Origin: an uncultured Chloroflexia bacterium
GTDB lineage: Bacteria > Chloroflexota > Limnocylindria > Limnocylindrales > CSP1-4
Reading direction: 5' to 3'
NCBI GenBank assembly: GCA_963752475.1
Contig: CAVVYR010000031.1
Location: 12,903-76,902, forward strand
Length of the DNA stretch: 64,000 bases
The number at the start of each line of letters is the position of its first letter. Within the stretch, counting starts at the first letter, position 1. Shown in pieces: positions 7,432-60,860 of the stretch. The translations under genes and the position numbers were made by a program. Below the pieces are notes generated by a model. That model saw only the letters and a list, made by a program, of their open reading frames with translations. It had not been told where the DNA came from and ran no database searches.

Positions 7432-7570
7432 GAGGATCCCCCTTCGATACGGGCGGGCCGGGTTCGCCAATTGCTCGGCGCGGTCCTCAGCGGCGAAGGT
7501 TCGGGCCGTGTGTCATCGCCTCCCGCTACGCCTATTCTCTCGCGGGCGTCCATCGGCCTCGACGCACGAC

Positions 7571-27025: not shown

Positions 27026-27116
27026 CACGCGGCGAGGATAGCGTCGCGGCCACGAAGGTGAAAGTGTGACCTGCGCTAGTCTGGCCGTCGCATCAGCATC
27101 GGAGGCACACGACAGC

Positions 27117-39539: not shown

Positions 39540-39563
39540 GCCGGGTCCCTCCGATTCGGTGCG

Positions 39564-41189: not shown

Positions 41190-41212
41190 GGGATCCTCCT
41201 GGGTCGAGTCGG

Positions 41213-42250: not shown

Positions 42251-42255
42251 GCTCA

Positions 42256-43073
42256 GGCGCCCACCGCCGATCTCGACACCCGACGGAGCCTGGCTCTCCC
42301 CGGGTCCGGTGAGCAGGACCGTTCCGACCCGTTCCTCGAGGATGCGACAGGCATCGAGGCCCGAGGGCGTCGTCGGTGATGACGACATCGGCCCGGTCGA
42401 GCCGGGCGATGGTGCTCACGCCGGTCACGCCCCACTTCGTATGGTCGGCCGTGACCACCAGGCGGGCGCCCGCATCGATGAGGGCCTGGTTCGTCTCGGC
42501 CTCGAGCATGTTGGGCGTGGTGAAGCCCGCGCGCTCGTGCATGCCGTGGACGCCGAGGAAGACGAGGTCGACGTTGACGTTGCGCAAGGCGCTCACGGCG
42601 AAGGGTCCGACGAGCGCGTCCGAGGGTGTGCGCACCCCGCCGGTGAGGATGATGGTCTGGTCGCTGCGACCGCCGTGGTAGAGCACCTCCGCTGCCGGCA
42701 CCGAGTTGGTCACGACGGTCAGGCGCGGGATCTCCACCAGGCGCCGGCTGACCTCGTAGGTCGTGCTGCCGGCCGAGACCGCCACCGCCATGCCCGGCTC
42801 GACCATGGCCGCGGCCGTGCGCGCGATCGCCAGCTTGGCGTCGTGCTCGAGCGTGCGCTTGGTGTCGAAGCCCGGCTCGTGGACGGCCGACTCGCGGAGC
42901 AGCGTGGCCCCGCCGTGGACCTTGACCAGGTGACCCTGGCTCTCGAGGGCTTCGAGATCACGACGCACGGTCATGTCGGAGACGTCGAGCTCGCGCATGA
43001 GGTCCGACACGCGCACGGCACCATCAGCTCGCAGCCGCTCGAGGATGAATGCGTGTCGCTGTGGCGCCAGCAC
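42256..43073 (-). CDS. DeoR-family transcriptional regulator (3' end unresolved)
   Basis: The GTG is at 43073. The HTH is 'RHAFILERLRADGAVRVSDLMRELDVSDMTVRRDLEALE', followed by a DeoR C-terminal sugar-binding domain to 'ADVVITDD'. After about 42370 the original frame turns Arg-rich nonsense. The plausible continuation, 'GLDACRILEERVGTVLL', lies in the galT frame, which has no stop before the galT ATG. Confidence 0.75.
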
Positions 43074-43238
43074 GGTGCAGCTACCTCCCTGGTGCGTCGG
43101 CAGATGCACGCCGATAGTGACGGCTAATCCGACAGAAGTCAACGTCGGAGTGACAGGACCATACGAGCGCCGCGACAAGAAAACGGTTGACAATCCGACA
43201 CCAGCCGGCGCACAATCGAGCCTGAACCGTGTTGGTTT

Positions 43239-43265
43239 CTGTTGGACCGTTGGGAGTTCCAACAG
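43239..43265. promoter_or_regulatory. inverted repeat CTGTTGGA-N11-TCCAACAG just upstream of the ABC-operon RBS
   Basis: Perfect 8-bp arms in the deoR / sugar-SBP divergent intergenic region. The repeat ends 4 nt before AGGAGGAGG (RBS of the ATG at 43283). An extra GTTGG copy lies at 43231. Confidence 0.35.
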
Positions 43266-43282
43266 CATAGGAGGAGGAACAC

Positions 43283-44602
43283 ATGGCGTTCCCTGAGACT
43301 CGCGCGCGCCGTCGGCTGACGGTCGCCGCGACCGCGCTCGCCACGGCGGCCCTGGTGGGCTCGAGCATCGCCGTCGCCGCGCAGGACGACGTCACCGTGA
43401 CCTTCCGGACCCGCCCGGACAACGAAGCCGAGGCGCAGGTCTACCGGGACATCGCGGCGCAGATCTCCGAGCAGCTCGACGGCATTACCGTGGAGTACCA
43501 AGCCGGCGGCACGGAGACGGCCGGATATCAGGACACGCTGAAGACCGAGGCCGCCGCAGGCACGGCACCCGATCTCTTCTGGATCCCCGGTACCGACGTT
43601 GCGGACTTCGCGACCCGCGGCATCATCGGTGACATGCGCTCGTATGCTGACGCCACCGACGGCTACAGCGACGACGACTTCTATCCAGGTCCGATGTACC
43701 ACATGACCTTCGATCCCGAGAGCGGTGAGCCGGGTGGCCCACTGTGGGGTCTGCCGCGTGACGTCTCTACGTTCGCGCTCTACCTGAACCTTGACCTGCT
43801 GGCCGAGGCCGGTGCGGAGGATCCGCGCGAGCTGGCCGCCAACGGCGAGTGGACATGGGACGCCTTCGGGGAGGTCGGCGAGGCCGTGGCCGCGCTCGGC
43901 AGCGACGTCAAGGCCTATGGAGCCAACGCATGGTGGGGTCCGTATGGCGTCTGGCTGAATGGCGCCGGTGGTGGCTTCTTCAATGAGGCCCGCGACGCCT
44001 GCGCGCTCGACACGCCCGAGTCCATCGCTGGACTCGAGCAGCTGGTCGATGTCTACGCCAAGGACAACTTCGCGGTGGCCTACGGCGAGGACTCCGAGCC
44101 GCCCTTCCTGGCCGGCAACGTGGGCATGTTCCAGAACGGCCGCTGGGCCACACCGAACATGCGTGCCAACGCCAACTTCGATTGGGACGTGGTGACTCTG
44201 CCGGATGGTCCAGTGCCCGGCGGCAATTGGCTCTTCTGGGGCGCCTACACCGTGAACGCCGCTTCGGAGCACCCCGAGGAGGCATGGCAGGTGCTCTACG
44301 CACTGACGGACCCGGAGGTCCAGAAGACGGTCTCAGAGCTGGGTGCCAACATCCCGAGCCGCGTGGGCCAGCAGGGCATCGACGACTTCATGACCTTCAC
44401 CCCGCCGGAGAACAACCAGGCCTTCCTCGACGGTCTGGCCAACAACAGCGTGGCTGAGGGTCCGCTGTGGGCCGGCAGCTGGCCGCAGTTCGACCAGGTC
44501 ATGGGCCCCGCCATCCAGGGTGTCGTCAACGGCGACATCAGCGTGGAGGAGTTCCAGGCCACCATCTGCGCCGACGCCAACGCCGCCGCGTTCGGCGACT
44601 GA
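43283..44602 (+). CDS. sugar ABC transporter substrate-binding protein (family 1)
   Basis: Signal peptide 'RRRLTVAATALATAALVGSSIAVAAQ'. 'PDLFWIPGTDVADFA' and 'GLPRDVSTFALYLNLDLL' are typical of SBP_bac_1/8. Confidence 0.9.
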   Translation: MAFPETRARRRLTVAATALATAALVGSSIAVAAQDDVTVTFRTRPDNEAEAQVYRDIAAQISEQLDGITVEYQAGGTETAGYQDTLKTEAAAGTAPDLFWIPGTDVADFATRGIIGDMRSYADATDGYSDDDFYPGPMYHMTFDPESGEPGGPLWGLPRDVSTFALYLNLDLLAEAGAEDPRELAANGEWTWDAFGEVGEAVAALGSDVKAYGANAWWGPYGVWLNGAGGGFFNEARDACALDTPESIAGLEQLVDVYAKDNFAVAYGEDSEPPFLAGNVGMFQNGRWATPNMRANANFDWDVVTLPDGPVPGGNWLFWGAYTVNAASEHPEEAWQVLYALTDPEVQKTVSELGANIPSRVGQQGIDDFMTFTPPENNQAFLDGLANNSVAEGPLWAGSWPQFDQVMGPAIQGVVNGDISVEEFQATICADANAAAFGD

Positions 44603-44615
44603 TCCCATAACGAAG

Positions 44616-44646
44616 GGCACGGAGCTGGCGCCGCCCGCTCCGTGCC
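44616..44646 (+). other. intra-operon stem-loop after the SBP gene
   Basis: GGCACGGAGC-N11-GCTCCGTGCC (10-bp stem), 14 nt after the SBP stop and 44 nt before the permease ATG. Confidence 0.4.
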
Positions 44647-44689
44647 ATCACCTCACACATAACTAGTACCTACTGGGGCACTAGCGCGC

Positions 44690-46399
44690 ATGTCCGTCCA
44701 GACGGCAGACCCACGAGGCTCCGCGCTCTCTTCGGTGCCGTCACCCCGTGACCCGCTCGGAGGACTGAAGCGCGGGCTGCTCACGCTCGTCCCCATCCTG
44801 CAGGCGGTCCTGACGGTCGCCGGCGCCGGCGCCGTCATCGCGCTCCTGCTAGCCGGCGACCTGGGCCTGCCGCTCCCCCTCTACCTATTCGTGCTCGCGG
44901 TCCCGGCGCTGTTTGCGCTGGCCGCCGGCGCGTCGACGGTGTGGACCTTCCAGCGCACCGCTCGCGGTCGCGTCGCGGCCATCATCGTCGACTACCTGGC
45001 TTTCCTGACCGCCTTCCTGCTGCTGCTGCACCTGCAAGGCGTCTTCATCGGCTTTGGTGACTTGGCGGACGTCTTCGCGGCGTCGCTGCCGTGGCTGGCG
45101 GTCGCGCTCGTGGCCTATCTAGTGGGCCAAACCACCGAGTGGACGGTCAATCGGCCCACCGCCACGAGGGTCATCACCCTCGTGCGCTACGGACTGTTCG
45201 CGGTCGCGGGCATCGGGTTCCTGGCCGCCATCGATGCCGTCCACGGCGCGCTGGAGTTGCTGCGGGGCCTGGCCGACCCGGTCAACCTCGGGCTGGCCAT
45301 CGCCAGCGTCGTGCTGCTCGCCTTCGTGGTCGCGCTCTGGGGCACCGAGGGCAGAGTCCGCTACGGTGCCACGCTCGGCGACAACGAGCTACTTGACGGG
45401 GTCATGCTCATCTCGCCCAACCTCCTGGGCTTCCTGGGCTTCTTCGCTGGTCCGCTGCTATTCAGCCTCTACGTCAGCCTCACCGACTGGGACGCCTTCA
45501 GCGACCCCGTGTTCCTGGGCTTCGAGAACTACCTCGAACTGCTCTCCATCCAACTCCTCTGGCTGAGCGACCCCTCGGTCCTGCTGCCCGCCGAGATGAA
45601 CGAAGGCTTCTCCGAGGTCTTCCGGCTCGGTCCGCTGATGATGGCGGCCAAGGACAAGCTCTTCTGGCTGTCGCTGCGGAACATCTTCGTCTTCGGCCTC
45701 ATCGCCATCCCGCTTGCGGTCATCCCGGCGCTCTTCATCGCCTCGCTGCTCAATTCCCGCGTGCGCGGCATCCGGATCTTCCGGACCATCTACTTCATCC
45801 CTACCGTTGCCGGCATCGTGGGCGTGGCCATCATCTGGAAGCAACTCCTGGACCAGACCGTCGGGTGGATCAACTACGGCGTCACGCTCACGGTCGACTT
45901 CCTCAACGGCACTCTCGGCCTGTCCCTCGAGGATCCCAGGATCGCCTGGCTTTCCGATCCGGTCACAGCACTGCCGATCATCGCGATCGTCTTCGCCTGG
46001 ACCACCGTCGGATTCAACTCGGTCATCTATCTGGCGGGCATGCAGGGCATCCCCGCCGACCTCTACGAGGCCGCCACCATCGACGGCGCCAATCGCTGGC
46101 AGCGCTTCATCCACATCACCATCCCCTCGGTCTCGGCCACGACGTTCTTCGTCATCGCGACAACGACCATCCTGGCCTTCCAGCTCTTCACCGAGGTGTG
46201 GGTCCTGACGGGAGGCGTCCAGCCTCCGGGCGGTCCTAACAACGCGACCATGACGCCGGCCCTGTACCTCTACAACTCGGGCTTCCAGAACTTCGAGTTC
46301 GGGTATGCGTCGGCGATCGCCTGGGCGCTCTTCGCGATCATCTTCGTCTTCACTCTGATGCAATTCCGGCGACAGCGAGCGGAGGCCCAAGGTGTCTGA
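44690..46399 (+). CDS. sugar ABC permease (MalF-type) with about 250-aa extra N-terminal membrane domain
   Basis: The C-terminal half carries the BPD_transp_1 EAA loop 'EAATIDGANRWQRFIHITIP'. The N-terminal half consists of additional hydrophobic helices. Confidence 0.85.
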   Translation: MSVQTADPRGSALSSVPSPRDPLGGLKRGLLTLVPILQAVLTVAGAGAVIALLLAGDLGLPLPLYLFVLAVPALFALAAGASTVWTFQRTARGRVAAIIVDYLAFLTAFLLLLHLQGVFIGFGDLADVFAASLPWLAVALVAYLVGQTTEWTVNRPTATRVITLVRYGLFAVAGIGFLAAIDAVHGALELLRGLADPVNLGLAIASVVLLAFVVALWGTEGRVRYGATLGDNELLDGVMLISPNLLGFLGFFAGPLLFSLYVSLTDWDAFSDPVFLGFENYLELLSIQLLWLSDPSVLLPAEMNEGFSEVFRLGPLMMAAKDKLFWLSLRNIFVFGLIAIPLAVIPALFIASLLNSRVRGIRIFRTIYFIPTVAGIVGVAIIWKQLLDQTVGWINYGVTLTVDFLNGTLGLSLEDPRIAWLSDPVTALPIIAIVFAWTTVGFNSVIYLAGMQGIPADLYEAATIDGANRWQRFIHITIPSVSATTFFVIATTTILAFQLFTEVWVLTGGVQPPGGPNNATMTPALYLYNSGFQNFEFGYASAIAWALFAIIFVFTLMQFRRQRAEAQGV

Positions 46400-47631
46400 G
46401 CAGAGCAGGACCCCGCGCGCTCCGCAGGCCACCACCTGGAGCCGTCTCCAGCCTCGGGCCAGGCTCCTGGGCACCTATCTACTGCTCATCGTCGTGGGCC
46501 TCGTGTTCGTCTTCCCCTTCGTGTTCATGGCTGCGACTTCGCTCAAGACCAGCGACGAGGTCTTCCGCTATCCCCCGCGCCTGCTGCCGTCCGAGACGGT
46601 CCTGGCCGTGGTCGCAGGGGAGGAGGTACCGCTCTACCAGATCACGGTGGATGGCACCACCATGGAGATGGCGGCCCTGGAGACGGGCATCCGCGCGGGC
46701 GTCTTCGCTGACGCCGCCTCGCCGGAGGAGACCCGGGCATGGCCGCTCGACCTGGCCACACCCGTGCTCGATGCGTCGGGCGAGGAGGTGACCCAGGAGG
46801 TCGGAGGCGAGTCGCTGCCGCTCTACGACGTGGCCTACGAGGGAGGGATCGAGCGCCAGGTCCTGACCCGCAACACCTCGGTCGCACGCTTCGTCCTGCC
46901 GGAGGACCCGAGCGTCACCGCCTACGGGGTGCTGCGAACCTCGACGCCGGTCGAGCGTCCCACGGCCCATCCAGAGAACTTCTCCACCGTGCTTGAGAAG
47001 GAGGGCTTCGGCCGCAACGTGACCAACACCATCCTGGTGACGCTCGCCGTGGTCTTCGGGCAGCTCTTCACTTCGATCCTCGGCGGCTACGCCTTCGCCC
47101 GCATCAGGTTCCCCTTCCGCAACGCGCTGTTCCTGGTGTACCTGGGCTCGATCATGGTGCCCTTCGTGGTGCTCATCATCCCGCTCTACCAGCTCATGGT
47201 CGGCATCGGCTGGGTCGACAGCATCCCGGCCCTGATCTTCCCTTGGGTCTTCAGCGCGTACGGCACCTTCCTGATGCGCCAGTTCTTCATCACTATCCCC
47301 AAGGAGCTGGAGGAGGCGGCCTTCATCGATGGAGCCAGTCGTTGGACGATCCTGTGGCGCATCTACGTGCCGCTCAGCCTGCCCGCCCTGGCGACCCTGG
47401 GCACTTTCGCCTTCCTCTACGCCTGGAACAGCTTCGTATGGCCCTTCGTCGTCATCAGCACGGGCAACGATGCTGCGCAGGTCATCACGGTGGCCCTGAC
47501 CCAGTTCAGTGGGCGGGCCGCAGTCTCGCCGCAGCTGGTCTTCGCGGGCGTCGTCATCGCCGTCTCGTTCCCGATCCTGGTCTTCATCATCGTTCAACGC
47601 TACTACCAAGCCAACGTCGCTTCGAGCGGCA

Positions 47632-47639
<8 letters not shown>
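46392..47639 (+). CDS. sugar ABC permease (MalG-type) with about 150-aa extracytoplasmic insertion after TM1
   Basis: EAA loop 'EAAFIDGASRWTILWRIYVPLSLPAL'. A long hydrophilic segment, 'TSDEVFRYPPRLL...TAHPENFSTVLEKEGFG', lies between the first two helices. Confidence 0.85.
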
Positions 47640-48822
<1,183 letters not shown>

Positions 48823-48883: not shown

Positions 48884-49894
48884 GTGAGTCGTCGATCCCT
48901 CCTGATGGCAGCGCTGTGCGCGAGCCTGTTGCTGCCTGGTGCTGCCCCTGCCGTCGCCGAAGAGCCTTCCCCCTATGGGCTCGAGGAAGTCTGGGCGCCG
49001 GTGGCAGCCAAGACCGACAAGGGCAAACGGCCGAAGGTCAACTTCAAGGTCGGGGACTGGAAGCTGAAGAAGCTCAAGTGGAAGAACCTGCGCTTCAACG
49101 GCGGTCAGCCGCTGGCCATCGAGACCGAGGGGCCGCAGGACGACCAGGCCATCCCCATGCGCCCCCTGGGCGTGGACGGCGCCCTCGTCTACAACCCGAC
49201 CGTGCTCGCGCAGCAGGGCATGAAGCGGCTGGACACATACCTGCAGACCGGGAACAAGTACCACCTGCGTCAGGCGCGCAAGTACGCGAACAAGCTCAAG
49301 GACCTCTCCGATGGCGGCAAGAAGCGTCGCTGGCAGCCGCACTGGTACGACCTCAGCGTCCATGAGAAGGGCTGGGTCAACTCCAACTCGCACGGCCTGA
49401 CGCTCTCGTTCGTGTCGCGCTACCACAAGATCACCGGCGCCAAGAAGAAGCTGCGACAGGCCAGGAAGCTGATGGCCGCCTTCGAGCAGCGGCCCAAGAA
49501 CCAACGCTGGTTCAGCGACGTCACGGCCAAGCGATACATCTGGTTCGAGCACTGGCCTGACGGCCGCAACGACCGCACGCTCAACGCGCACATCAACGCC
49601 CTCTTCGGCATCTACGACTACTGGCGCGTGACGGACGATCCGCTCGCGGAGGTCTACCTTCTGGGCGGTCTCAAGACCGTGCGTGACAAGCTCTACCGCT
49701 TCCGGCGCAAGGGCGAGCTCTCGAGATACAGCCTGGAGGGCACCACGGGCTCGCTGCACTACCACGAGACGCATATCGAGCAGTTGCGCATCCTGGCCAA
49801 GATGACCGGCGACAAGTGGTTCGAAAGGCAGGCCGACCGGTTCCAGCGAGACGAAGACAAGTGGAAGGCGAAGTACCGCGGCGGCGGACGCTAG
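48884..49894 (+). CDS. exported D-glucuronyl C5-epimerase-like protein
   Basis: GTG at 48884. The signal peptide is 'MSRRSLLMAALCASLLLPGAAPAVA'. The sequence 'GWVNSNSHGLTLSFVSRY', 'WFEHWPDGRNDRTLNAHINALFGIYDYW' and 'YHETHIEQLRIL' follows the C5-epimerase C-terminal domain pattern (WYEEYP / LNGFIYSLIGLYD / YH..HI.QL). The protein is unusually Lys-rich. Confidence 0.65.
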   Translation: MSRRSLLMAALCASLLLPGAAPAVAEEPSPYGLEEVWAPVAAKTDKGKRPKVNFKVGDWKLKKLKWKNLRFNGGQPLAIETEGPQDDQAIPMRPLGVDGALVYNPTVLAQQGMKRLDTYLQTGNKYHLRQARKYANKLKDLSDGGKKRRWQPHWYDLSVHEKGWVNSNSHGLTLSFVSRYHKITGAKKKLRQARKLMAAFEQRPKNQRWFSDVTAKRYIWFEHWPDGRNDRTLNAHINALFGIYDYWRVTDDPLAEVYLLGGLKTVRDKLYRFRRKGELSRYSLEGTTGSLHYHETHIEQLRILAKMTGDKWFERQADRFQRDEDKWKAKYRGGGR

Positions 49895-50317: not shown

Positions 50318-52360
50318 ATGTCTGACGGCATGACCGAGACGCACCCCAAGTCATACTTCCGCTCCGACATCGAAGGCCTGCGGGCCATCGCCATCGGGGC
50401 GGTGTTGCTGTACCACGCCGGCGTCGCCGGTGCCGATGGCGGCTTCATCGGCGTCGACGTCTTCTTCGTCATCTCCGGCTTCCTCATCACCGGACTGCTC
50501 GTCCGGGAGTGGAACGGTAGCGGCCGCATCGACCTGCTGGTGTTCTACGCGCGCCGCTTCCGCCGGCTGCTGCCGGCGGCCCTGCTGGCGATCGTGGTCA
50601 CGGTCGTGGCCTCGTACCTCATCCTGTCGGAGCTTCGCTTCCCGGGCGTGGCCTTCGACGGCGCCGCGGCTGCGCTCTACGTCTCCAACATCCGCTTCGC
50701 TACCGAGGCCATCGACTACCTCGGGGCGGAGACGGCACCATCGCCACTGCTGCATTTCTGGTCCCTGGGCGTGGAGGAGCAGTTCTACCTCTTCTGGCCG
50801 CTGATCATCTTCCTCAGCCTGCGCCTGCTGGGGCTGGCGCGGCTCTGGCTCGCGGTGGCCCTGATGGTGGTGGCTTCGCTCGCGCTGGCGTTCTACTGGA
50901 CCGACGTCGCCGCCCCGTGGGCCTTCTTCTCGTTGCCGACCCGCGCCTGGCAGCTGGGCGCGGGCGCGCTCATCGCCATCGGGGTGCTCAAGCTGCCCGA
51001 GCGCACACCCGGCTGGCTGGCACAGGCCGCCAGCTGGCTCGGCCTGGCACTCATCTGCTTCGGCGTCGTCTACATCAAGGGCGATATGCCGTACCCGGGC
51101 ACCGTCGCGCTCATCCCGGTCGTGGGTACGGCCCTGATGATCGTGGGCATGAGCCACACGCCGGGGCTGCCGGCGCAGCTCCTCTCGACCCGCTTCCCAC
51201 GCTGGATCGGGCGCATCTCTTACTCGCTCTACCTCTGGCACTGGCCGCTGCTGGTGCTGGTGCCCATCGCCCTCGGAATCGAGAGCGTGCCCTTCAACCT
51301 GCTGCTGGTCGTCGTGGCCACGCTCGTGGCCTGGGCGTCGACCGAGCTCTACGAGGGACCCATCCGCCACGGCACGCTGCTGCCGATGCGCCCGAGCCGC
51401 AGTGTCGCGGCCGCCATCGCGGCGTCGGTGCTGGTGGCGCTGGGGGCCTTCGCCTGGGGCAACGCGATACAGGGCGAGCGCTGGACGCCGGGTGAGGTCG
51501 ACGAGGCCACCGTGCGTTCGATCGAGCTGCCTGAACCACGACGCGAGGGACCCGTCCCCGAGGATCTCGTGCCGCCGTTGACCGGCGCCTACTGGGACAA
51601 CCCCGACGGCTACGACGATGGCTGCCATCTCGAGCCCGGCGATGTCACGGTGCCAGACTGCGTCTACGGTGACCCTGCCGGCGAGCAGACCGTGATGCTG
51701 ATCGGGGACTCGCACGCCCAGCAATGGCTACCCGCAGCGCAGGCGCTCGCTGACGAGCGGGGCTGGCGGCTGGTGGCCATCACCAAGTCCGCCTGCCCGA
51801 TGGTCGAGGGCACGGTCTGGAACGGCATCCTCAAGCGTGACTATCGCGAGTGCGATGCGTGGCGCGAAGACATCTACGAGCGCATCGAGACAGAGGCACC
51901 GGCACTGGTGCTGACCGCCGCTGACAGCCGCTACCAGCTGATGCAGGGCGGCGAGCGGCTCGAGGAGGGCAACGACGAGGCCTGGTCCACCGCTCTGACG
52001 TCTGGGCTCGAGCGCCTCCGCGAGCTGGCGCCCACGGTCGTCATCGCCGACACCCCACGGGTCGGCTACCTCCCGGCCGAGTGCCTGGCCACGAGCGATG
52101 GCATCGAGGACTGCGATGTCGATCGAGAGCGCATGGTGGACGAGGTCTACGCTGAGATGGAGGCCGCGGCCGCGGCCGCGGCCGGGGTCGGGCTCGTGTC
52201 GGCGACCGAGTGGCTCTGCTTCGAGGAGGACTGCCCCATCGTGCGTGGTTCGAACCTCGTGTACCGTGACAGCCACCACCTCTCTGCGACGTTCGCCGAC
52301 CGCCTCTCCGAGCGGCTCGGTGCCGCCGTCGACGCCGTACTGGGGGAAGTTGGACCGTGA
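50318..52360 (+). CDS. acyltransferase-3 (AT3) membrane domain fused to a C-terminal SGNH domain (OafA/OatA-type)
   Basis: 'IEGLRAIAIGAVLLYHAG..GFIGVDVFFVISGFLIT' and about 10 TM helices form the AT3 part. The C-terminal part has 'MLIGDSHAQQW', 'TKSACP' and 'YRDSHHLSATF'. Confidence 0.9.
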   Translation: MSDGMTETHPKSYFRSDIEGLRAIAIGAVLLYHAGVAGADGGFIGVDVFFVISGFLITGLLVREWNGSGRIDLLVFYARRFRRLLPAALLAIVVTVVASYLILSELRFPGVAFDGAAAALYVSNIRFATEAIDYLGAETAPSPLLHFWSLGVEEQFYLFWPLIIFLSLRLLGLARLWLAVALMVVASLALAFYWTDVAAPWAFFSLPTRAWQLGAGALIAIGVLKLPERTPGWLAQAASWLGLALICFGVVYIKGDMPYPGTVALIPVVGTALMIVGMSHTPGLPAQLLSTRFPRWIGRISYSLYLWHWPLLVLVPIALGIESVPFNLLLVVVATLVAWASTELYEGPIRHGTLLPMRPSRSVAAAIAASVLVALGAFAWGNAIQGERWTPGEVDEATVRSIELPEPRREGPVPEDLVPPLTGAYWDNPDGYDDGCHLEPGDVTVPDCVYGDPAGEQTVMLIGDSHAQQWLPAAQALADERGWRLVAITKSACPMVEGTVWNGILKRDYRECDAWREDIYERIETEAPALVLTAADSRYQLMQGGERLEEGNDEAWSTALTSGLERLRELAPTVVIADTPRVGYLPAECLATSDGIEDCDVDRERMVDEVYAEMEAAAAAAAGVGLVSATEWLCFEEDCPIVRGSNLVYRDSHHLSATFADRLSERLGAAVDAVLGEVGP

Positions 52361-53502
52361 TCAGCCTCGCCACCGCTCGCGCCGCGCTCGTCGGCCTTCT
52401 CCTGGTCGTGCTCACGGCTGTGCCGGTGCTCGCCGCCGATCGCGATGGCGACGGCCTCAAGGACAGCTTCGAGACACGCTATGGCGTGACCTCGCCCGAC
52501 TCGCACGACTCGGACAGCGACGGCGTCGTCGACAGCGCCGAGGACAGCGACGGCGACCGCCTGGCCAACCACGCCGAGCAGCGCTTCGGCCTGAACCCCG
52601 CCAGACGCGACACCGACGGCGACGGGAGGTCGGACGCCGCCGAGGACCACGACCGTGACGGGCGCAGCAACGCCAAGGAGCAGGACCAGCGACGACTGCC
52701 GGCCAGGACGAACCCGAGGCTCGGCTACATCAAGCGCGACCGGGCCGTGATCGCCAAGAACTGCATCTCGTCCCAGCGCTCCGCCAACGTCGTCAGCTGC
52801 CTCGACGGGATGATCTCGAGCGACACCCGCATCGTGGTCATGGGCGACTCCCACGCGACGATGATGGTCGATCCCATCCGACGCGCGGCTCGCAATGCCG
52901 GCTGGCGCGTGGAGACCATGCTCAAGGGTGCCTGCATGCCGTTGCTGGGCACGATGAATACGGCCCAGTGGAAGCTGGATAAGGGCCAGAGCTGCCGTGA
53001 GTGGCGCATCCGTGCCTTCACTCGCCTGAAGAAGAACCCGCCGGACCTGCTCATCCTCACCGCCAACGACAATGCCGTCTTCGTGGACAAGAAGGGCCGC
53101 GAGCTGCCGCGCAGGAAGCGTGCGGCCATCTGGCGCAAGGGCATCGCGCGGGTCATCGACCGCCTGGCCCCGGAGACCACGCTGCTGGTCCTGGGCGATG
53201 TGCCGGACACGAACGGCAACCCCATCAAGTGCCTCAAGCGCGATCGCTCGGACATGTCCCGCTGCACGACGCGGCGTGAGCCACTGAGCAAGCGCAACAT
53301 CGAACGCGCCGTGCGCTCGATCGTCATCGCCCGCGGACAGGAGTTCGCGACCCTCTACGGCAAGATCTGTCCATACGATCCCTGCCCGGTGGTCCAGGGC
53401 ACGACGCTGGTCTGGCGCTCGAAGGGCCACCTGTCGGCCTCGTTCGCACGCAAGCTGACGCCGACGATGCGGCGCATCATCACCGGAGCACTCGACCGAT
53501 GA
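52357..53502 (+). CDS. secreted TSP3-repeat / SGNH-domain protein, paralogue P1
   Basis: GTGA overlap with AT3-SGNH. The signal peptide is 'LVGLLLVVLTAVPVLAA'. The repeat module is 'DRDGDGLKDSFE..DSDSDGVVDSAEDSDGDRLANHAEQRFG..DTDGDGRSDAAEDHDRDGRSNAKEQD'. The SGNH part has 'VVMGDSHA' and 'WRSKGHLSASF'. Confidence 0.85.
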   Translation: MISLATARAALVGLLLVVLTAVPVLAADRDGDGLKDSFETRYGVTSPDSHDSDSDGVVDSAEDSDGDRLANHAEQRFGLNPARRDTDGDGRSDAAEDHDRDGRSNAKEQDQRRLPARTNPRLGYIKRDRAVIAKNCISSQRSANVVSCLDGMISSDTRIVVMGDSHATMMVDPIRRAARNAGWRVETMLKGACMPLLGTMNTAQWKLDKGQSCREWRIRAFTRLKKNPPDLLILTANDNAVFVDKKGRELPRRKRAAIWRKGIARVIDRLAPETTLLVLGDVPDTNGNPIKCLKRDRSDMSRCTTRREPLSKRNIERAVRSIVIARGQEFATLYGKICPYDPCPVVQGTTLVWRSKGHLSASFARKLTPTMRRIITGALDR

Positions 53503-54653
53503 CACGAACCTCTCCCATGCGCGGGCTCCTCGGCACCGTCCTCGCCGGCTGCCTGCTACTGACCAGCCTCGGGGTGGCCGCGGCGGCCACGGACACCGAT
53601 GGCGACGGCTTGAGCGACGAGTTCGAGACGACCTGGGGTGTGACCTCGCCGGAGTGGAAGGACACCGATCGTGACGGCATCATCGACGCCGTCGAGGACG
53701 AAGACGGCGACAAGCTGGGCAACCGCGGCGAGCAGCGCTACGGCACGGATCCCGGCAACCCCGATACCGATGGCGACGGCACGCTCGACGGTGACGAGGA
53801 TTCCGACGACGACGGCCGCACCGATGCCCAACAGCAGGACGAGCGACGCGTGCCCAAGGATGTGCGTCCCGCGCTAGACGAGGCCGAGGACGACGCCAAC
53901 GGCGTCAACGTCTTCTGCGGTGTCCTCCAGGGTAGGTCCGAGCTGCGCCACTGCAGCTTCGGACCCAGGGATAGCGAGACCCGCATCGTATTCATGGGCG
54001 ACTCGCACGCCCACTCGCTGCTACGACCCTTCAAGCGCGCGGCCCAGCGTGAACGCTGGCACATCGAGACCGTCATCAAGGGCGCCTGCATCCCCCTCCT
54101 GGGCATCGAGAACGGGCTCCAGCAGCGACTCGACAAGGGCCAGAGCTGCCGCGCCTGGAAGGACAACGCCATCGACTGGCTGAAGGCTGACCCGCCCGAC
54201 CTCGTCGTCATCACCCAGAGCCAGACCTACAACCTCGCCCGGCGCGACGGCACGCCATTCGGCAAGAAGAGCTGGCCCGACCGCTGGCAGGCGGCGGTGG
54301 AACGGACCGTGGGGGCCATGCCCGAGTCGACGCAGGTGCTCATCCTCGGCGACGTGCCGCGCAACTTCGGTGACCCTGTGAAGTGCCTGCAGGAGGACCC
54401 CAGGGACATGTCCGCCTGCACCTCGCCGCGCCTGGCGCCGGAGGAGCGCGCGATCGAGTCGGCGCTGCGTGCCGGTGCGGAGGCCAGCGGCGCAGCCTTC
54501 GGCACGCTCTACGACTCGATCTGCACCTACGATCCCTGCCCCCTGGTCCACGGCGAGGTGCTCGTCTGGCGCGACCGCTCGCACGTCAACGCCACGTTCA
54601 GCGGCCGCCTGACGCCCACGATCCAGACGCTCCTGACGGACGCTCTGCCGTGA
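53499..54653 (+). CDS. secreted TSP3-repeat / SGNH-domain protein, paralogue P2
   Basis: ATGA overlap. 'DTDGDGLSDEFE..DTDRDGIIDAVEDEDGDKLGNRGEQRYG..DTDGDGTLDGDEDSDDDGRTDAQQQD', then 'VFMGDSHA' and 'WRDRSHVNATF'. Confidence 0.85.
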   Translation: MTRTSPMRGLLGTVLAGCLLLTSLGVAAAATDTDGDGLSDEFETTWGVTSPEWKDTDRDGIIDAVEDEDGDKLGNRGEQRYGTDPGNPDTDGDGTLDGDEDSDDDGRTDAQQQDERRVPKDVRPALDEAEDDANGVNVFCGVLQGRSELRHCSFGPRDSETRIVFMGDSHAHSLLRPFKRAAQRERWHIETVIKGACIPLLGIENGLQQRLDKGQSCRAWKDNAIDWLKADPPDLVVITQSQTYNLARRDGTPFGKKSWPDRWQAAVERTVGAMPESTQVLILGDVPRNFGDPVKCLQEDPRDMSACTSPRLAPEERAIESALRAGAEASGAAFGTLYDSICTYDPCPLVHGEVLVWRDRSHVNATFSGRLTPTIQTLLTDALP

Positions 54654-56030
54654 GCCGATGGTCGCGCCCGACCCGTGGCGCACTCGTCAGCCTGCTGGCC
54701 GTGGCGCTGACCGCCGGCCCCGTGGCCGCCGTCGATACCGATGGCGACGGTCTGCGCGACGCCTTCGAGCGCAAGAACGGCATGACCTCGCCCGATCGAG
54801 CCGACACCGACCGCGATGGCGTCATCGACTCGGCGGAGGACCATGACCGTGACGACCTCGCCGACCTGGGCGAGCAGCGCTTCAAGACCGATCCGGGTGA
54901 CCGCGATACCGACGGCGACGGAATCCTCGATGGGTTCGAGGATTCCGACGGCGATGGCACGCTCGACCGCGTCGACCAGCACCGCCGCCCCGTCCCGGCC
55001 GATGTCCGACCCAAGCTGCAGAGCGCCGTCGTCGACGTGGCTCGCGACGGCAGGCGGTGTGGCGTGCGCACCGGCGACCCGACGGTCAACGTCTGTCGCT
55101 TCGGCAAGCTCAAGAGCAAGACCGACGTGGTGCTCATCGGCGACTCCAAGGCCACCATGTACCTGCCGCCGATGCAGATCGTGGCCGAGCAGGAAGGCTG
55201 GCGCCTGACCACGATGCTCAAGGGTCGTTGCACGCCGGTGCTGGGCACGATGCCCCGCTACCAACGCATCTTCGACCAGGGGCTCACCTGCGCCCGCTGG
55301 CGCAGCAGCGTCTTCGAGCGACTGCGCAAGAACCCGCCGGAGATGATCGTGCTCGTGTTCTCGGACGACTACGCGCTCGTCGACAAGGAGAACCGCAAGC
55401 TCAACGACAAGCAGAAGGAACAGCAGCTCGAGAGCGGGTTGCGCGCGACGCTGCGCGCCCTGCCCAGGAAGTCGACCGTGGTGCTGCTGGCGGATGCACC
55501 GCGCTCGCTCAAGAACCCGCCGAACTGCCTGCGGCAGAACCCCAACGACATGTCCGCCTGCCTGACGCTTGGCGAACCGGCCTCGGCCCGTCGGCTCAAT
55601 ACCGTCCAGCGACGAGCCATGGAGGAGGGCGGTGGTGTCTACCGCACGCTCGAGGACAAGATCTGCCCGAGCCGCCCGTGTCCGCTCGTCCAGGGCGACA
55701 TCCTCGTCAACAAGGACAAGGGCCACCTGACGGTGACCTTCACGCGGAAGCTCGCGCCCTCGCTCCGCGCCGAGCTGGCGCCGTTGCTGGCACCTCCGAC
55801 GCCCAAGCCGACGCCGACGCCGGCAGCCGACGCCGGAGCCGACGCCAAGCGTCGAACCCAGCCTCGACCCGTCGGCCCAGCCATCGCTCGACCCGGTCCC
55901 GGAGCCGACGCTCGATCCCGAGGCTGGAGCTACCCACGACCCGGCTGCGGAACCGGTGCTGGACCCCTCGTCCGCTCCGTCCGAAGTCCCGCTCGATCCG
56001 TCTCCGATGCCGTCGGAGCCGCCGGCGTGA
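54650..56030 (+). pseudogene. secreted TSP3-repeat / SGNH-domain protein, paralogue P3, with Pro-rich tail reached only after a frame shift (about 55820)
   Basis: GTGA overlap with P2. 'DTDGDGLRDAFE..DTDRDGVIDSAEDHDRDDLADLGEQRFK..DTDGDGILDGFEDSDGDGTLD', then 'VLIGDSKA' and 'NKDKGHLTVTF'. After 'PTPKPTPTPAA' the alternative frame reads 'PTPEPTPSVEPSLDPSAQPSLDPVPEPTLDP...SEPPA' and stops at TGA 56028-56030. Confidence 0.75.
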
Positions 56031-57181
56031 ATTCGGTCCTGAGCATGACCCTGGTGCTGCTGCTCGTGGCGCTAGCCGTGGCACCCGCGACCGCGGCCAC
56101 TGACAGCGACGGAGATGGCCTGCGCGACGGTTTCGAGGCGCGCCACGGCCTGACCTCGGCCAGCGATCCCGACAGCGATGACGATGGCGTCATCGACGGG
56201 GCCGAGGATCACGACAACGACCGCCTCAGCGACCGCGGAGAGCAGCGGTTCGGCACCAACCCGCGCCGCCGCGACACCGACCGCGACGGCATCCTCGACG
56301 GGCGTGAGGACGACGACGGCGACGGCCGCCGCAATGCCGTCGAGCAGGACCAGCGGCCCATGCCGCGGGCGCTCGCACCCGGGCTGGCGGCTGCGCGGGC
56401 TGACGTCTCGCCGTACAAGGCCGGCTGCCAGGCTACCCAGGGCCAATCGGCGGTGGTCACGTGCAGCTATGGCCCGGCAGACAGCGACACCAGCGTCGTG
56501 CTGATGGGCGATTCCCACGCCATGCAGCTGGCCACGCCGATCGTGACCGTGGCCAGAGAGAACGGCTGGCGGCTGACGACGTTGGTGAAGAAGGCCTGCC
56601 CGCCGATCCTGGGCATCCATAACCTGGCCAAGAGGTGGCGCTCGGACCGAGGCCACTGTCGCGTCTGGCGCCGCAAGGCACTGGCCTGGCTCAAGGCCGA
56701 CCCGCCGGACCACATCATCCTGGCTCACTCCGATGCCTACGCCATCTCGACGCTCAGGGGCAAGCGGATCGTGGGCGACAGGCGCGCGCCGCTGTGGCGC
56801 TCGGGCGTCAAGCGCACCGTCCGCCGGATGCCGGCCGCGTCGAAGGTGCTCGTCCTCGGTGACACCCCCGAGAACCGCACCGATCCCGTCGCGTGTCTCA
56901 AGCAGCACCCGACCGATATGTCCCAGTGCACGACCCGGCGCAAGCCGCTCGCCAAGCGGGCCATCGAGCTGGCCATCGAGCGGGGTGCCAGGGCCGCTGG
57001 CGCCGACTACCGGCGCTTCTTCGACAAGGTCTGCTCGTACGATCCATGCCCCATCGTGCAGGGGCGGGTGCTCATGTACCGCGACCGGGGCCACCTGACA
57101 GCGACCTTCGCCGAACGCCTGACGCCGACCTTCCGGTCGATGCTCGGGGACGTCATCGGCCGCGCCGGGAGGCACGACTGA
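56027..57181 (+). CDS. secreted TSP3-repeat / SGNH-domain protein, paralogue P4
   Basis: GTG at 56027 (GTGA with the corrected P3 stop), or ATG at 56045. The signal peptide is 'MTLVLLLVALAVAPATAA'. 'DSDGDGLRDGFE..DSDDDGVIDGAEDHDNDRLSDRGEQRFG..DTDRDGILDGREDDDGDGRRNAVEQD', then 'VLMGDSHA' and 'YRDRGHLTATF'. Confidence 0.85.
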   Translation: MNSVLSMTLVLLLVALAVAPATAATDSDGDGLRDGFEARHGLTSASDPDSDDDGVIDGAEDHDNDRLSDRGEQRFGTNPRRRDTDRDGILDGREDDDGDGRRNAVEQDQRPMPRALAPGLAAARADVSPYKAGCQATQGQSAVVTCSYGPADSDTSVVLMGDSHAMQLATPIVTVARENGWRLTTLVKKACPPILGIHNLAKRWRSDRGHCRVWRRKALAWLKADPPDHIILAHSDAYAISTLRGKRIVGDRRAPLWRSGVKRTVRRMPAASKVLVLGDTPENRTDPVACLKQHPTDMSQCTTRRKPLAKRAIELAIERGARAAGADYRRFFDKVCSYDPCPIVQGRVLMYRDRGHLTATFAERLTPTFRSMLGDVIGRAGRHD

Positions 57182-58368
57182 TGGCTCGCCTCACGCGCGC
57201 CGCTGCCGCCGCGCTTCTCGGGCTGCTCCTGGCCGCGGTGCCGGCCATGGCCACGGATGCGGATGGCGACGGGCTGACCGATGAGTTCGAAGAGCGCTGG
57301 GGCGTCACCGACCCTGCGACCGCGGACAGCGACGGCGACGGGCTCGGGGACGCGCTCGAGGACCTCGACGCCGACCGCCTCGGCAACCTCGGGGAACAGC
57401 GCTACGGAACCGATCCCGGCAGCGCCGACACCGACGGCGACGGCGTCATCGATGGCGACGAGGACACCGACGGAGACGGCGTCAGTGACGCCCGGGAGCA
57501 GGACCGCCGCCCGGCACCCGCAGACCTCGAGCCGAAGCCCGAGTACGCCTGGTGGGACCGCCCGCCCAACTATGACGACGCCTGCCACGGCGACACCCTC
57601 GACCCGGAGCTACACCCCTGCACCTACGGCGTGGAGGAGAGCGATACGACGGTCGTCCTCTTCGGCGACTCCCACGCCCTGCAGTGGCAACCGGGACTCA
57701 AGGCGGCCGCGTTCGAGAACGGTTGGCGCGTCGTGACACTGACCAAGGCGGCCTGCCCACCGGCCGAGATCCGCTCTTCGCGCAAGGAGCAAGCAGCACA
57801 GGACTCGTGCGACGTCTGGCGGAGCGCGGCCCTCGACTGGATCGGAGAGAACGAGCCTGAGGTCGTGCTCATGACCGGCGGTGGTCGCATCTACCGGCTG
57901 GAGGACGAGCGTGGCGAACGCATCGCGGGCGACGACCGCACGGTCGCGTGGAACGCCGGTCTCACGAGCACCATCGAGGCCTTGCCCGAGGCCACGACCG
58001 CGGTGGTGCTGGCGGACACGCCGTACCTCCAGACGAACCCCGCGACTTGCCTGGAGAAGGACTCGAGCGACCTCATGGCCTGCTCGACACCCCGATCGGC
58101 GGCCATCGACACCGACTTCGACGCTGCCGAAAGGGCGGCGGTGGAGGCTGCGGGCGGGTTCTATGCCGACCTCAACGTCCTCGTCTGCCCGTACAGCCCA
58201 TGCCCGGTGGTCTTCGACGACGTTCTCGCATGGCGCAACCGTGACCACCTCACGGCCACGTTCGTCACGACCCTGGCGCCGTCGCTCGGGGCGGCCATCG
58301 TGGAGGCACTCAGGGGCGGAGCCGATCCGGCAGAGGAGGGGGCAGCCTCAGAGGAGGCGACGAGCTAG
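57181..58368 (+). CDS. secreted TSP3-repeat / SGNH-domain protein, paralogue P5 (closest to the AT3-fused SGNH domain)
   Basis: TGATG overlap with P4. The signal peptide is 'MARLTRAAAAALLGLLLAAVPAMA'. 'DADGDGLTDEFE..DSDGDGLGDALEDLDADRLGNLGEQRYG..DTDGDGVIDGDEDTDGDGVSDAREQD', then 'YDDACH', 'VLFGDSHALQW', 'GWRVVTLTKAACP' and 'WRNRDHLTATF'. Confidence 0.85.
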   Translation: MARLTRAAAAALLGLLLAAVPAMATDADGDGLTDEFEERWGVTDPATADSDGDGLGDALEDLDADRLGNLGEQRYGTDPGSADTDGDGVIDGDEDTDGDGVSDAREQDRRPAPADLEPKPEYAWWDRPPNYDDACHGDTLDPELHPCTYGVEESDTTVVLFGDSHALQWQPGLKAAAFENGWRVVTLTKAACPPAEIRSSRKEQAAQDSCDVWRSAALDWIGENEPEVVLMTGGGRIYRLEDERGERIAGDDRTVAWNAGLTSTIEALPEATTAVVLADTPYLQTNPATCLEKDSSDLMACSTPRSAAIDTDFDAAERAAVEAAGGFYADLNVLVCPYSPCPVVFDDVLAWRNRDHLTATFVTTLAPSLGAAIVEALRGGADPAEEGAASEEATS

Positions 58369-59473: not shown

Positions 59474-60860
59474 CGCGAGCGTGTATCCCGGGCGTTCGGG
59501 GGTTCGGCTGACCCTCGACGACGGGCTCCGGCGGACCTGGATGCCGATCCGCAGGTCCTTGCTGCCAAGTCGATCCACAACGGAGACTTCCGACGCGGAA
59601 CCGACGGCTGGGCCCTCCGTGATGCCCCCACGGCCGAGCTTGGCATCGACCTGTCGCCCGAATGGACACTCGCCGATGGGCACACCGCCTACGTGAGCGA
59701 TGCCAGCCCAGCCTCGGCGGCCGCGACGCTGACCGTCGTCGACGATACCGGAGACGTGCGCATCCGCGTGATCGCCGGTGCGACGTGGGAGCTATCGCTG
59801 CTCCTCGCGACCCACGGCTGCACGGCCGAGGTCGAGCTCGCCTTCACCGATGACCACAGCGACCCCATCCGCAGCACTCATCGTCACGTCCCGGCCGGGG
59901 TGATCGGTGGTACCGAGGCCGAGGGCTATCGGTCGTTGACTCTGCGCGAGGTGGTGCCGCAAGGTGCGAGGTGGGCCCGACTCGGCCTGCGCAAGGGCCC
60001 CACCCTTCCTCCCGCGCGCGACAGCTACCTGTTCGTGGCCCAGGTGAGCTTCGATCGGGTGGATGCGTCACCCTTCGATGCGGCTGAGCGCCCGGAGCTC
60101 GACGCTGCCGTCGCAGGCTGGGGCGATCCGCGAGTCCTCGTCCTGCCTCTGCCCCAAGGGTCCGATGACGGGTGCCCACACCAGCTGCACGTGCAGGATC
60201 AGGCTACCGGCCAGCAGATGAAGGGCTCGCCGCTGCAACTGGGTCGGCGGCAACCTCTCGAGGGCGGTATCGACCGGTTCGATGGGGCGGTCCTGATCGG
60301 CTGGGTCCGGGCGGCGACCGGGGCCGTCGACGCTCGACAGATCGCGCTGGAGATCGACGGCGCCGAGGTCGCACGCATATGGGCCTGGGAAACGCGCGCC
60401 GACGGGGCTCTTGCCCTTCAGGCTCCGCTCCCGGCCGGGACGTTCGACGACAGGACACACGCACTGCGCATCCGGGCCGTTCGCGAGGGCACGGTCATCC
60501 ACGAGGCGCCCACTCGCCTCCCGCGTCTGCCCGCACCCTGGGAGACGCCAGCCGCGGCCAAGCTCACGGCCTCGTCTGGTTCCGCGTCGGCCACCGCCAG
60601 CCATCGCTATCGATCGCTCCAGATCGATCTGGAGAAGCTGGCGAGCGGTGACCGCGTCGACCCCGTGCGCACCGAGTAGCTCGGCCTCCTGCAGGAGGTG
60701 CTCATCGGCGGCCGTGGCCCTGCCTTCCGCCCTCTCGTGTTCCTGTCCGTCGAGGCGCCCAGCGTATCGGTGGTCATCCCGGTCTACGAGCACTTCGCGA
60801 CGACCTATCGTTGCCTCGCGGCCCTGCTCTTCGCCCACACGGACGTGGCCTACGAGGTAG
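59474..60860 (+). pseudogene. decayed family-2 glycosyltransferase gene (CBM-like N-terminal region, in-frame TAG, truncated after the first beta-strand of the GT2 fold)
   Basis: The frame is open from 59474, with 'SIHNGDFRRGTDGWAL' upstream of the first usable start (GTG 59693). An in-frame TAG is at 60677-60679. The same frame then reads 'SVSVVIPVYEHFATTYRCLAALLFAHTDVAYEV' (the GT2 opening) and stops resembling GT2 at about 60855. Confidence 0.55.

Follow-up and report, generated by a model that had tools for sequence, protein, structure and literature searches.

The window analysed here, 64,000 nucleotides of contig CAVVYR010000031.1 from an uncultured Chloroflexia bacterium (GTDB order Limnocylindrales), carries at 50318-58368 on the forward strand one gene for an AT3-SGNH acyltransferase, followed by five coupled genes, P1 to P5, for paralogous proteins that join an acidic module of the thrombospondin type 3 (TSP3) kind to an SGNH domain. 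By sequence and predicted fold, each of P1-P5 reproduces, as a free protein, the entire extracytoplasmic part of an AT3-SGNH enzyme, with a signal peptide and the TSP3-type module apparently in place of the membrane domain. What looks novel is the set of detached, TSP3-tagged SGNH copies coupled to an AT3-SGNH gene; the AT3-SGNH class itself is known. We consider it probable that the free copies act in the same pathway as the AT3 protein.

Two designs are recognised for extracytoplasmic acylation, one pairing an MBOAT protein with a separate SGNH protein and the other fusing AT3 to SGNH (PMC12148441). In the second, the AT3 domain brings an acyl group from acyl-CoA to an outward-facing residue, from which the SGNH serine passes it to a glycan hydroxyl (PMC12148441, PMC7448272, PMC10503756). 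A 2022 review of AT3 proteins leaves open whether they use partner SGNH proteins (PMC9558356). We found no description in the literature of an architecture with one AT3 protein and many free SGNH proteins.

Locus layout and gene models

The six genes (Table 1) lie in DNA of high G+C content (66-71% across the window), and each stop codon overlaps the next start: GTGA between AT3 and P1, ATGA between P1 and P2, GTGA between P2 and P3 and again between P3 and P4, and TGATG between P4 and P5. A preliminary description of this DNA, made from the sequence alone, had reported this gene order, the five coupled open reading frames (ORFs) and all five junction types; the junctions in our gene models are exactly those.

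As assembled, P3 reads on into P4 to give a single 932-aa ORF (54383-57181). A one-base shift near 55815 yields instead a P3 tail rich in Pro, Ser and Glu that ends in PLDPSPMPSEPPA before a stop codon overlapping the GTG start of P4. The correction, already called for in the preliminary description, is justified because the tails of P3 orthologues in four other genomes (loci L032, L004, L020 and L001) match the corrected frame, ending in the same type of sequence, DPSPxxSExAA. The frameshift is either a sequencing error or a real mutation. ORFs holding two or three TSP3-SGNH units occur in several assemblies; in two of them (the L001 ORF and P0121, from locus L050) the units continue in frame and the signal peptide of the next unit becomes an internal hydrophobic segment. 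Such multi-unit ORFs could be true fusions or assembly errors.

A promoter scan of the region returned no promoter-like site and does not settle the operon structure. The only hairpin in a terminator scan of the forward strand falls inside the AT3 coding region and is probably due to chance.

The AT3-SGNH enzyme

The first protein of the array matches the Pfam families Acyl_transf_3 (PF01757; E 2.9e-30, 105.9 bits against a cutoff of 31, residues 17-340) and AT3-associated SGNH (PF19040; E 4.5e-33, 115.4 bits against a cutoff of 27). An R-X10-H motif, RAIAIGAVLLYH, occupies residues 22-33 in the first helix, and in a crude hydropathy scan the hydrophobic segments end with one at 363-381, before the SGNH extension begins, which is predicted to put the SGNH domain outside the cell. 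In its AT3 plus SGNH build, its R-X10-H motif and its Ser/Asp/His triad the protein resembles OafA and OafB, the Salmonella O-antigen acetyltransferases. A single-sequence search of its SGNH domain against the Protein Data Bank (PDB) gave no match; the OafB structure 6SE1 was reached by profiles only.

SucT (Rv1565c) is a mycobacterial AT3-SGNH protein needed for succinylation of arabinogalactan and lipoarabinomannan, and shows that the class moves acyl groups other than acetyl (PMC10503756). The SucT model (NF058601) is the best NCBIfam match of the window protein, over its whole length (E 6.4e-80), yet the score of 269.5 bits does not reach the equivalog cutoff of 1275 bits. Judged by these matches, the protein is an ordinary member of the AT3-SGNH class and a distant homologue of SucT, not a SucT equivalog. 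Homology predicts that it transfers an acyl group from acyl-CoA to an extracytoplasmic glycan.

The detached SGNH domains

The preliminary description had aligned the C-terminal domains of the paralogues by eye with the SGNH domain of the AT3 protein. That homology is borne out by Pfam, by a profile search of solved structures and by the predicted fold. P1, P2 and P5 score 80.3, 97.8 and 96.3 bits on PF19040 (cutoff 27), and for P3 and P4, scanned only together as the joint 932-aa ORF, two matching stretches give 187.7 bits. When the six window domains are aligned, the GDS motif, the block V His and eight Cys are invariant; a wider comparison, of 119 domains drawn from 48 loci, shows nearly all of them with the nucleophile Ser, the His of block V and the eight Cys. 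All five paralogues have the Ser and His, and the block V Asp is present in P2-P4 and in the AT3 protein's domain. No AT3 domain occurs in any of the five polypeptides, and the fusion architecture that defines the SGNH-AT3 family is absent from them.

The six-domain comparison proposed earlier gives 32-45% identity among P1-P5. The AT3 protein's own domain has 41% identity with P5 in pairwise alignment; with the other paralogues the figure is 25-32%. P3 has the signatures GDSKA, KGRC and DKGH, and this clade signature is conserved in eight orthologues.

An AlphaFold2 model of P5 built on an 84-sequence alignment has a mean pLDDT of 93.9 and a pTM of 0.88, with a pLDDT of about 98 in the TSP3 module. 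Foldseek ranks 6SE1, the periplasmic domain of OafB, first among solved structures (E 1.6e-11, TM 0.65 on the target). Generic SGNH esterases match at about 1e-4, with CE2-like carbohydrate esterases resembling the fold, and for Ape1 (4k3u, 8gld) E lies between 6e-4 and 1e-2, with a TM of about 0.3. The SGNH profile aligns with 6SE1 over its full length, with the GDS, the DxxH and the C-terminal Cys pair in register, and reaches Ape1 4k3u at E 0.21. The paralogues show no close fold or sequence similarity to Ape1-type esterases, including the inserted accessory domain of the latter.

An invariant pair, Cys135/Cys147, lies in the stretch ahead of the core SGNH domain, as in the 'SGNH extension' of OafA and OafB, a structured linker that follows the last membrane helix, occludes the active site and shapes acceptor specificity (PMC7448272). 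It is because the match to 6SE1 is full-length and the Cys-paired extension is retained that we describe the free proteins as copies of the whole extracytoplasmic part and not of the catalytic core alone. The extension is predicted to occlude the active site of the paralogues as it does in OafB.

The N-terminal signal region and TSP3-type module

A heuristic reading of all five N-termini finds a basic n-region, a 12-residue hydrophobic core and small-x-small sites, in line with the signal peptides noted earlier, and P1-P5 are predicted to be secreted via Sec. In the P2 signal region (53499-53590) an LAGC sequence that resembles a lipobox lies upstream of an Ala-rich cleavage-like site; P2 might be a lipoprotein instead of a freely secreted protein.

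The acidic module of common layout, put at about 90 aa in the preliminary description, measures 86 aa, with five DxDxDG-type motifs at fixed positions and 28-34% Asp plus Glu. Modules are 56-66% identical between copies. At the DNA level they are the best-conserved stretch of the paralogues and form a direct-repeat family, D1, of five 271-nt copies that are 68-72% identical and spaced at 1154, 1142, 1368 and 1154 nt.

The same description had called these repeats TSP3-type. On the Pfam TSP3_bac family (PF18884) each protein scores 14.2-19.1 bits, and the double ORF 24.7, genuine matches that fall short of the cutoff of 25. Among the proteins reached by a profile of the module are giant ones of 10-57 repeats; three of these were tested, and the best two score 118-132 bits on PF18884. 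The NCBIfam throspo3 MtsC/MtsD and CglD models match the module with E of 1e-5 to 1e-7. A PDB profile search gives the Ca-binding region of Bap (7c7r) at E 2e-4 and, weakly, COMP at E 0.25. A module-only model has a pLDDT of 94.8; Foldseek with this model found nothing significant (best, Bap at E 0.25) and no COMP or thrombospondin match. We accept the module as a bacterial TSP3-type acidic repeat because the homology is transitive, the module profile reaching proteins that are strong on PF18884. It is predicted to bind Ca2+. The surface and matrix proteins that it matches (the biofilm protein Bap, CglD, MtsC/D and the giant TSP3_bac proteins) suggest surface association.

In locus L021, two adjacent paralogues are identical over 326 nt, from the last part of the signal peptide through the complete TSP3 module (Table 1). 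Either a recent gene conversion of the module or an assembly artefact would produce this.

Distribution and synteny

More than 800 homologues of P5 were found among 8000 candidates scored in public data. The best 120, which we listed, are mostly proteins of about 400 aa with PF19040, with or without TSP3_bac, and the named ones among them come from metagenome-assembled genomes (MAGs) of Candidatus Limnocylindrales or Chloroflexota, except one labelled Planctomycetota. A scan of one genome per species, with six-frame annotation, gave 45 loci, all in Chloroflexota MAGs labelled Limnocylindrales, 'uncultured Chloroflexia' or Anaerolineaceae. In the closest relatives of the window the AT3 protein is 83% and P5 about 76% identical.

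The array occupies an orthologous slot in about 17 Limnocylindria-type MAG species. The order is GalK (-), a C5-epimerase-like gene (+), AT3-SGNH (+), n TSP3-SGNH genes (+) and hemerythrin (-). The copy number n is two in L002; three in L010-L014 and L042; five in the window, L007, L008, L020, L021 and L025; seven in L004; and nine in L001. Overlapping or nearly abutting genes are the rule, with same-strand arrays behind the AT3 gene and overlaps of 1-4 nt in the window, L001, L032 and L008. Gene calls for L002 had suggested an array without AT3. This reading was dropped because the six-frame scan shows the AT3 gene to be present and split by frameshifts. Many related loci have broken frames, concentrated in 'MFD' MAG assemblies, where AT3 genes are broken too.

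AT3-SGNH and TSP3-SGNH genes also stand side by side between unrelated flanks in L016, L018, L019 and L050. The AT3 gene comes first in L016, L019 and L050; the order differs in L018, with a TSP3-SGNH gene upstream of AT3 and an SGNH gene without the TSP3 module downstream. In L050 the gene for a 988-aa AT3-SGNH protein overlaps by 4 nt a 1232-aa ORF with three TSP3-SGNH units, and two further copies follow. About 390 residues between the AT3 and SGNH domains of this L050 protein are without a Pfam match and could represent a further SGNH unit in degenerate form or an insertion of some other domain. The concern that the array might be peculiar to one assembly is answered by the roughly 17 syntenic species with two to nine copies, by L016, L019 and L050, and by L018 in its other order.

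Many TSP3-SGNH genes stand alone. Their neighbours are housekeeping genes with no common theme besides a FemAB-family gene at one solo clade. Members of that clade lie in three species directly downstream of this gene, whose family is of the peptidoglycan cross-bridge type, and the pair is flanked by HisRS and AspRS genes (Table 1); Pfam bears out the arrangement in L041, and matching ORF layout points to it in L023 and L027.

Evolution of the copies

A neighbour-joining tree of the 119 SGNH domains separates the AT3-fused domains, a P5-type clade, a large inner-copy clade and two further clades without a window member, one of which has the signature GDSNM. The P5-type clade supplies the last array gene in every syntenic locus and is closest to the AT3-fused domain. 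Within the inner-copy clade each of P1-P4 clusters with its positional orthologues in other species. Solo genes fall among the inner copies or form a separate divergent clade. The phylogeny that was proposed earlier sorts the paralogues into positional orthologue clades.

Rough ratios of nonsynonymous to synonymous substitution (dN/dS) against orthologues are 0.21-0.23 for the AT3 gene, 0.17-0.19 for P5 and 0.29-0.44 for P2-P4, with synonymous sites near saturation (pS 0.4-0.55). P5 is the slowest-evolving copy. The paralogues are under purifying selection. They are old, maintained and differentiated, and not decaying duplicates, because their orthologue clades persist, their catalytic residues are kept and their dN/dS is well below 1.

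Every clade has conserved residues peculiar to it that adjoin the catalytic Ser and His, for example GDSKA, KGRC and DKGH in the P3 clade and NxDH and GGGRIY in the P5 clade. Clustering of such residues near the catalytic Ser, block II and His is not significant (p = 0.11; four strict columns, two of them near the site). The earlier suggestion that acceptor sites have diverged keeps the residues beside Ser and His in its favour and is weakened by the absence of significant enrichment.

AT3-SGNH-SGNH fusion proteins

About 14 representative clusters (at 50% identity) of metagenomic proteins of 937-1000 aa are candidates for an AT3-SGNH-SGNH architecture, of which we found no description in the literature. 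Two SGNH stretches are seen in P0169 by Pfam and in P0173 and P0185 by sequence reading; for P0216 a precomputed Pfam record confirms the presence of AT3 and SGNH only. In P0169, P0173 and P0185 each SGNH unit has its own extension, GDS and His, and there is no signal peptide between the units. One fusion gene belongs to a cluster that includes genes for glycosyltransferases, UDP-glucose dehydrogenase and UDP-GlcNAc 2-epimerases. Whereas the array has separate secreted copies, the extra unit in these fusion proteins is covalently fused, single, and without signal peptide or TSP3 module. By analogy, a second head tethered to AT3 favours the view that extra heads cooperate with the membrane domain.

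Proposed function and alternative explanations

We propose that the locus is a lineage-specific putative operon that would modify cell-envelope glycans in Limnocylindria-type Chloroflexota. Its OafB/SucT-like AT3-SGNH protein would take an acyl group from cytoplasmic acyl-CoA, move it across the membrane to an outward residue and pass it through the SGNH Ser to a sugar hydroxyl. The free copies would be active extracytoplasmic acyl-transfer enzymes in this AT3 pathway, held at the cell surface or matrix by the Ca-binding module. They would accept the acyl group from the AT3 domain in trans and serve as alternative transferase heads, each orthologous clade acting on a different acceptor sugar or position. 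These parts are not equally secure. A shared pathway is, as stated, probable; for the trans-acyltransferase mechanism, with AT3 donating to the free heads, we would put the chances slightly under even; and the complete picture, in which AT3 is a shared donor hub for two to nine Ca-repeat-tagged, acceptor-tuned heads besides its own fused one, is put forward tentatively, being less likely than its parts.

Points that favour this proposal are the transferase-type homology, the retained catalytic residues, the coupled AT3-first order, the maintenance of the paralogues and the fusion proteins. The view of the free copies as alternative transferase heads rests on two precedents. OatA, OafA and OafB, the SGNH-AT3 members that have been characterised, act as transferases and not as esterases (PMC9487903), and acetyl-Tyr peptide mimics serve as donors for the SGNH domains of either system type (PMC12148441). 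Transferase over esterase chemistry is accordingly what homology predicts for the paralogues, and donation in trans is plausible by analogy. The acyl group may be acetyl, succinyl or another. As to the glycan, the C5-epimerase-like gene upstream is a weak hint at a uronic-acid polymer, and the FemAB neighbour of one solo clade an equally weak hint at peptidoglycan.

Several observations weigh against the proposal. The AT3 protein keeps a complete SGNH head of its own, with IGDSHA and YRDSHH motifs and an intact Ser/Asp/His triad, and has no obvious need of partners. P1 and P5 are without the canonical DxxH Asp, which is Ser in P1 (SKGH) and Asn in P5 (NRDH), the Asn being kept across the P5 clade; the OafA D587A mutant has only about 10% of its activity left (PMC7448272). 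In at least 15 loci a TSP3-SGNH gene stands by itself, without an AT3 less than 10 kb away. For apparently soluble paralogues, in a cell that probably has a single membrane, repeated access to a membrane donor is less obvious. Block II gives no help: the paralogue position aligned to OafB N459 is Ala or Arg, preceded by Ser, Ala, Gly or Lys, and this block was dropped as a marker of transferase or esterase because its alignment to OafB N459 is ambiguous and not decisive.

The strongest competitor is that the detached proteins are O-acyl esterases that remove or edit the acyl groups installed by AT3, much as Ape1 does, with each paralogue clearing a different position during glycan or wall remodelling. 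SGNH enzymes are mostly hydrolases, and the three-gene operon patA-patB-ape1 is a precedent for an esterase beside its acetyltransferase (PMC12148441). Soluble, secreted paralogues would suit such a role, the AT3 protein has its transferase head already, and solo copies far from AT3 would need no donor. Ape1 structures do appear among the fold matches of P5, but at E 6e-4 they are far behind OafB at 1.6e-11, and all characterised members of the AT3-associated subfamily are transferases (PMC9487903). The paralogues also retain the extension that occludes the OafB active site (PMC7448272), the AT3-SGNH-SGNH fusions would be an odd design for an esterase in tethering a second head to the donor, and two to nine esterases per transferase are hard to rationalise. 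We regard esterase action as a serious possibility that nevertheless falls on the unlikely side.

It is improbable, in our judgement, that the paralogues are nutritional carbohydrate esterases secreted to act on external polysaccharides and adjacent to AT3 only through tandem duplication. In its favour are the likeness of the fold to CE2 and related carbohydrate esterases, the neighbouring genes for a sugar ABC transporter and for GalK and GalT of the Leloir pathway, a copy number that differs between species as in substrate-driven families, and the scattering of solo copies around the genome. Against this, the AT3-first order with overlapping stop and start codons is kept across distant, non-syntenic loci, the slowest copy, P5, is always beside the AT3 gene in syntenic loci, none of the array loci examined showed a glycoside hydrolase or polysaccharide lyase, and the SGNH extension is predicted to block the active site, in the manner of OafB. 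Still less credible, to the point where we give it little weight, is the reading that the copies are without catalytic activity and keep no more than an SGNH-like fold, whether as surface or matrix proteins or as duplicates in decay. The missing triad Asp of P1 and P5, the frameshift in P3 of this assembly, the broken frames of many related loci and the TSP3 repeats, which are typical of adhesins, can be read that way. Ser and His are kept in nearly all of the 119 domains, however, dN/dS is well below 1 and orthologous clades persist across species. The frameshifts are concentrated in MFD assemblies, which we take to be long-read assemblies, and affect AT3 genes as well; if so, they are probably sequencing indels.

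Relation to known systems

The detached domains share with the OafB structure 6SE1 the extended SGNH fold, the Cys-paired linker, the C-terminal Cys pair and an atypical oxyanion region. They differ from OafA and OafB in having four Cys pairs instead of two or three, an identity to OafB of only about 16% and a host in the Chloroflexota; above all, the SGNH unit here occurs also as two to nine separate secreted proteins tagged with TSP3-type repeats. The paper on SucT consulted here reports no detached SGNH array for that enzyme (PMC10503756).

A membrane translocator beside free SGNH proteins is familiar from the MBOAT systems PatA/PatB(/Ape1), AlgI/AlgJ/AlgX, WssH/WssI and DltB/DltD. There the free proteins complete or reverse the transfer, and one operon may hold both a transferase and an esterase (PMC12148441). 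As in PatAB and AlgIJFX, separate extracytoplasmic SGNH genes lie beside the translocator gene here, five of them, coupled to the AT3 gene. The membrane component of the present locus is AT3 (PF01757), in contrast, and still has its own fused SGNH; no MBOAT protein (PF03062) was found among the window ORFs scanned with Pfam. Also unlike the MBOAT systems, the free proteins are paralogous to the fused domain, number up to nine and have TSP3-type repeats.

The AlgE1-7 proteins of Azotobacter vinelandii are secreted, Ca2+-dependent mannuronan C5-epimerase paralogues with Ca-binding repeat modules, and produce varied patterns on one polysaccharide. The analogy with the array is one of logic only; catalytic fold, chemistry and repeat type (RTX in AlgE1-7) differ.

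Surroundings of the array

The C5-epimerase-like gene lies directly upstream of AT3 on the same strand in all syntenic loci and is absent from L016, L018, L019 and L050; it may or may not be part of the system. Upstream of it is a sugar-use neighbourhood that also includes glycerol kinase and glycerol-3-phosphate oxidase-like genes. Farther off in the window, a c-di-GMP-II-GAG riboswitch aptamer is found just upstream of a 237-aa ORF without a Pfam match. A 1675-aa ORF, probably a large surface protein, has a von Willebrand A domain at its C-terminus that exceeds the gathering score of Pfam; it also matches F5/8 type C (E 9e-07) and PPC (E 3e-06), with no single matched stretch over threshold. 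Downstream of the hemerythrin gene, a 328-aa ORF has no Pfam match and no homologue in the related loci.

Table 1. Coordinates of the array genes and of other features in the window and in related loci
Feature	Location	Strand	Remarks
AT3-SGNH gene, 680 aa	50318-52360	+	PF01757, PF19040
P1, 381 aa; signal-peptide-like start, TSP3-type module, SGNH domain	52357-53502	+	PF19040 E 2.3e-22
P2, 384 aa; block V DRSH	53499-54653	+	PF19040 E 1.1e-27; orthologues in L004, L020, L032
P3, about 459 aa after removal of one base near 55815	54650-56030	+	GTGA overlap at both ends once frame is fixed
P4, 384 aa; VKKACPP and DRGH signatures	56027-57181	+	Alignment, tree; PF19040 on joint P3+P4 ORF only
P5, 395 aa; block V NRDH	57181-58368	+	PF19040 E 3.1e-27; AlphaFold2 model, Foldseek, tree
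TSP3-type module DNA, P1 copy	52416-52686	+	Direct-repeat family D1
TSP3-type module DNA, P2-P5 copies	53570-53840, 54712-54982, 56080-56350, 57234-57504	+	Direct-repeat family D1
C5-epimerase-like secreted protein	48884-49894	+	PF06662 (D-glucuronyl C5-epimerase C-terminal domain), Pfam C5-epim_C E 1.3e-24; N-terminus signal-peptide-like
Sugar-use neighbourhood	38013-48822
GalT	41213-42388	-
Sugar ABC transporter	43283-47639	+	Unusually long permeases (569, 415 aa)
GalK	47632-48822	-
c-di-GMP-II-GAG riboswitch aptamer	7448-7532	-	Rfam, 42.4 bits; gathering score 40
237-aa ORF	6671-7384	-
1675-aa ORF	22112-27139	-
328-aa ORF	59693-60679	+
Multi-unit TSP3-SGNH ORF, window	54650-57181
Multi-unit TSP3-SGNH ORF, L001	3111-5297
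Multi-unit TSP3-SGNH ORF, L021	7509-9926
Multi-unit TSP3-SGNH ORF, L050	10001-13699		P0121
Identical 326-nt stretches, L021	7675-8000, 8815-9140
AT3-SGNH gene with long insert, L050	7038-10004
FemAB-adjacent solo locus, L023	8915-11131		From matching ORF layout
FemAB-adjacent solo locus, L027	8619-11074		From matching ORF layout
FemAB-adjacent solo locus, L041	8610-11098		Pfam-confirmed
Fusion-associated locus, L048	1995-4961
Fusion-associated locus, L049	8001-10853

Significance

Here, in a natural and conserved setting, the catalytic head of an AT3-SGNH enzyme recurs in as many as nine free copies that are coupled to that enzyme. The locus offers a test bed for donation by AT3 in trans, for transferase against esterase chemistry within one subfamily and for the diversification of acceptor specificity. 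Were the donor-hub proposal true, it would add a third organisation of extracytoplasmic glycan acylation to the two recognised designs, the TSP3-type module would be a device for Ca-dependent retention or docking, and Limnocylindria would have a combinatorial, fast-evolving acylation of surface glycans, directed for example against phages or lytic enzymes. The locus also points to a large, undescribed family of secreted enzymes in an abundant, uncultured lineage of soil and freshwater.

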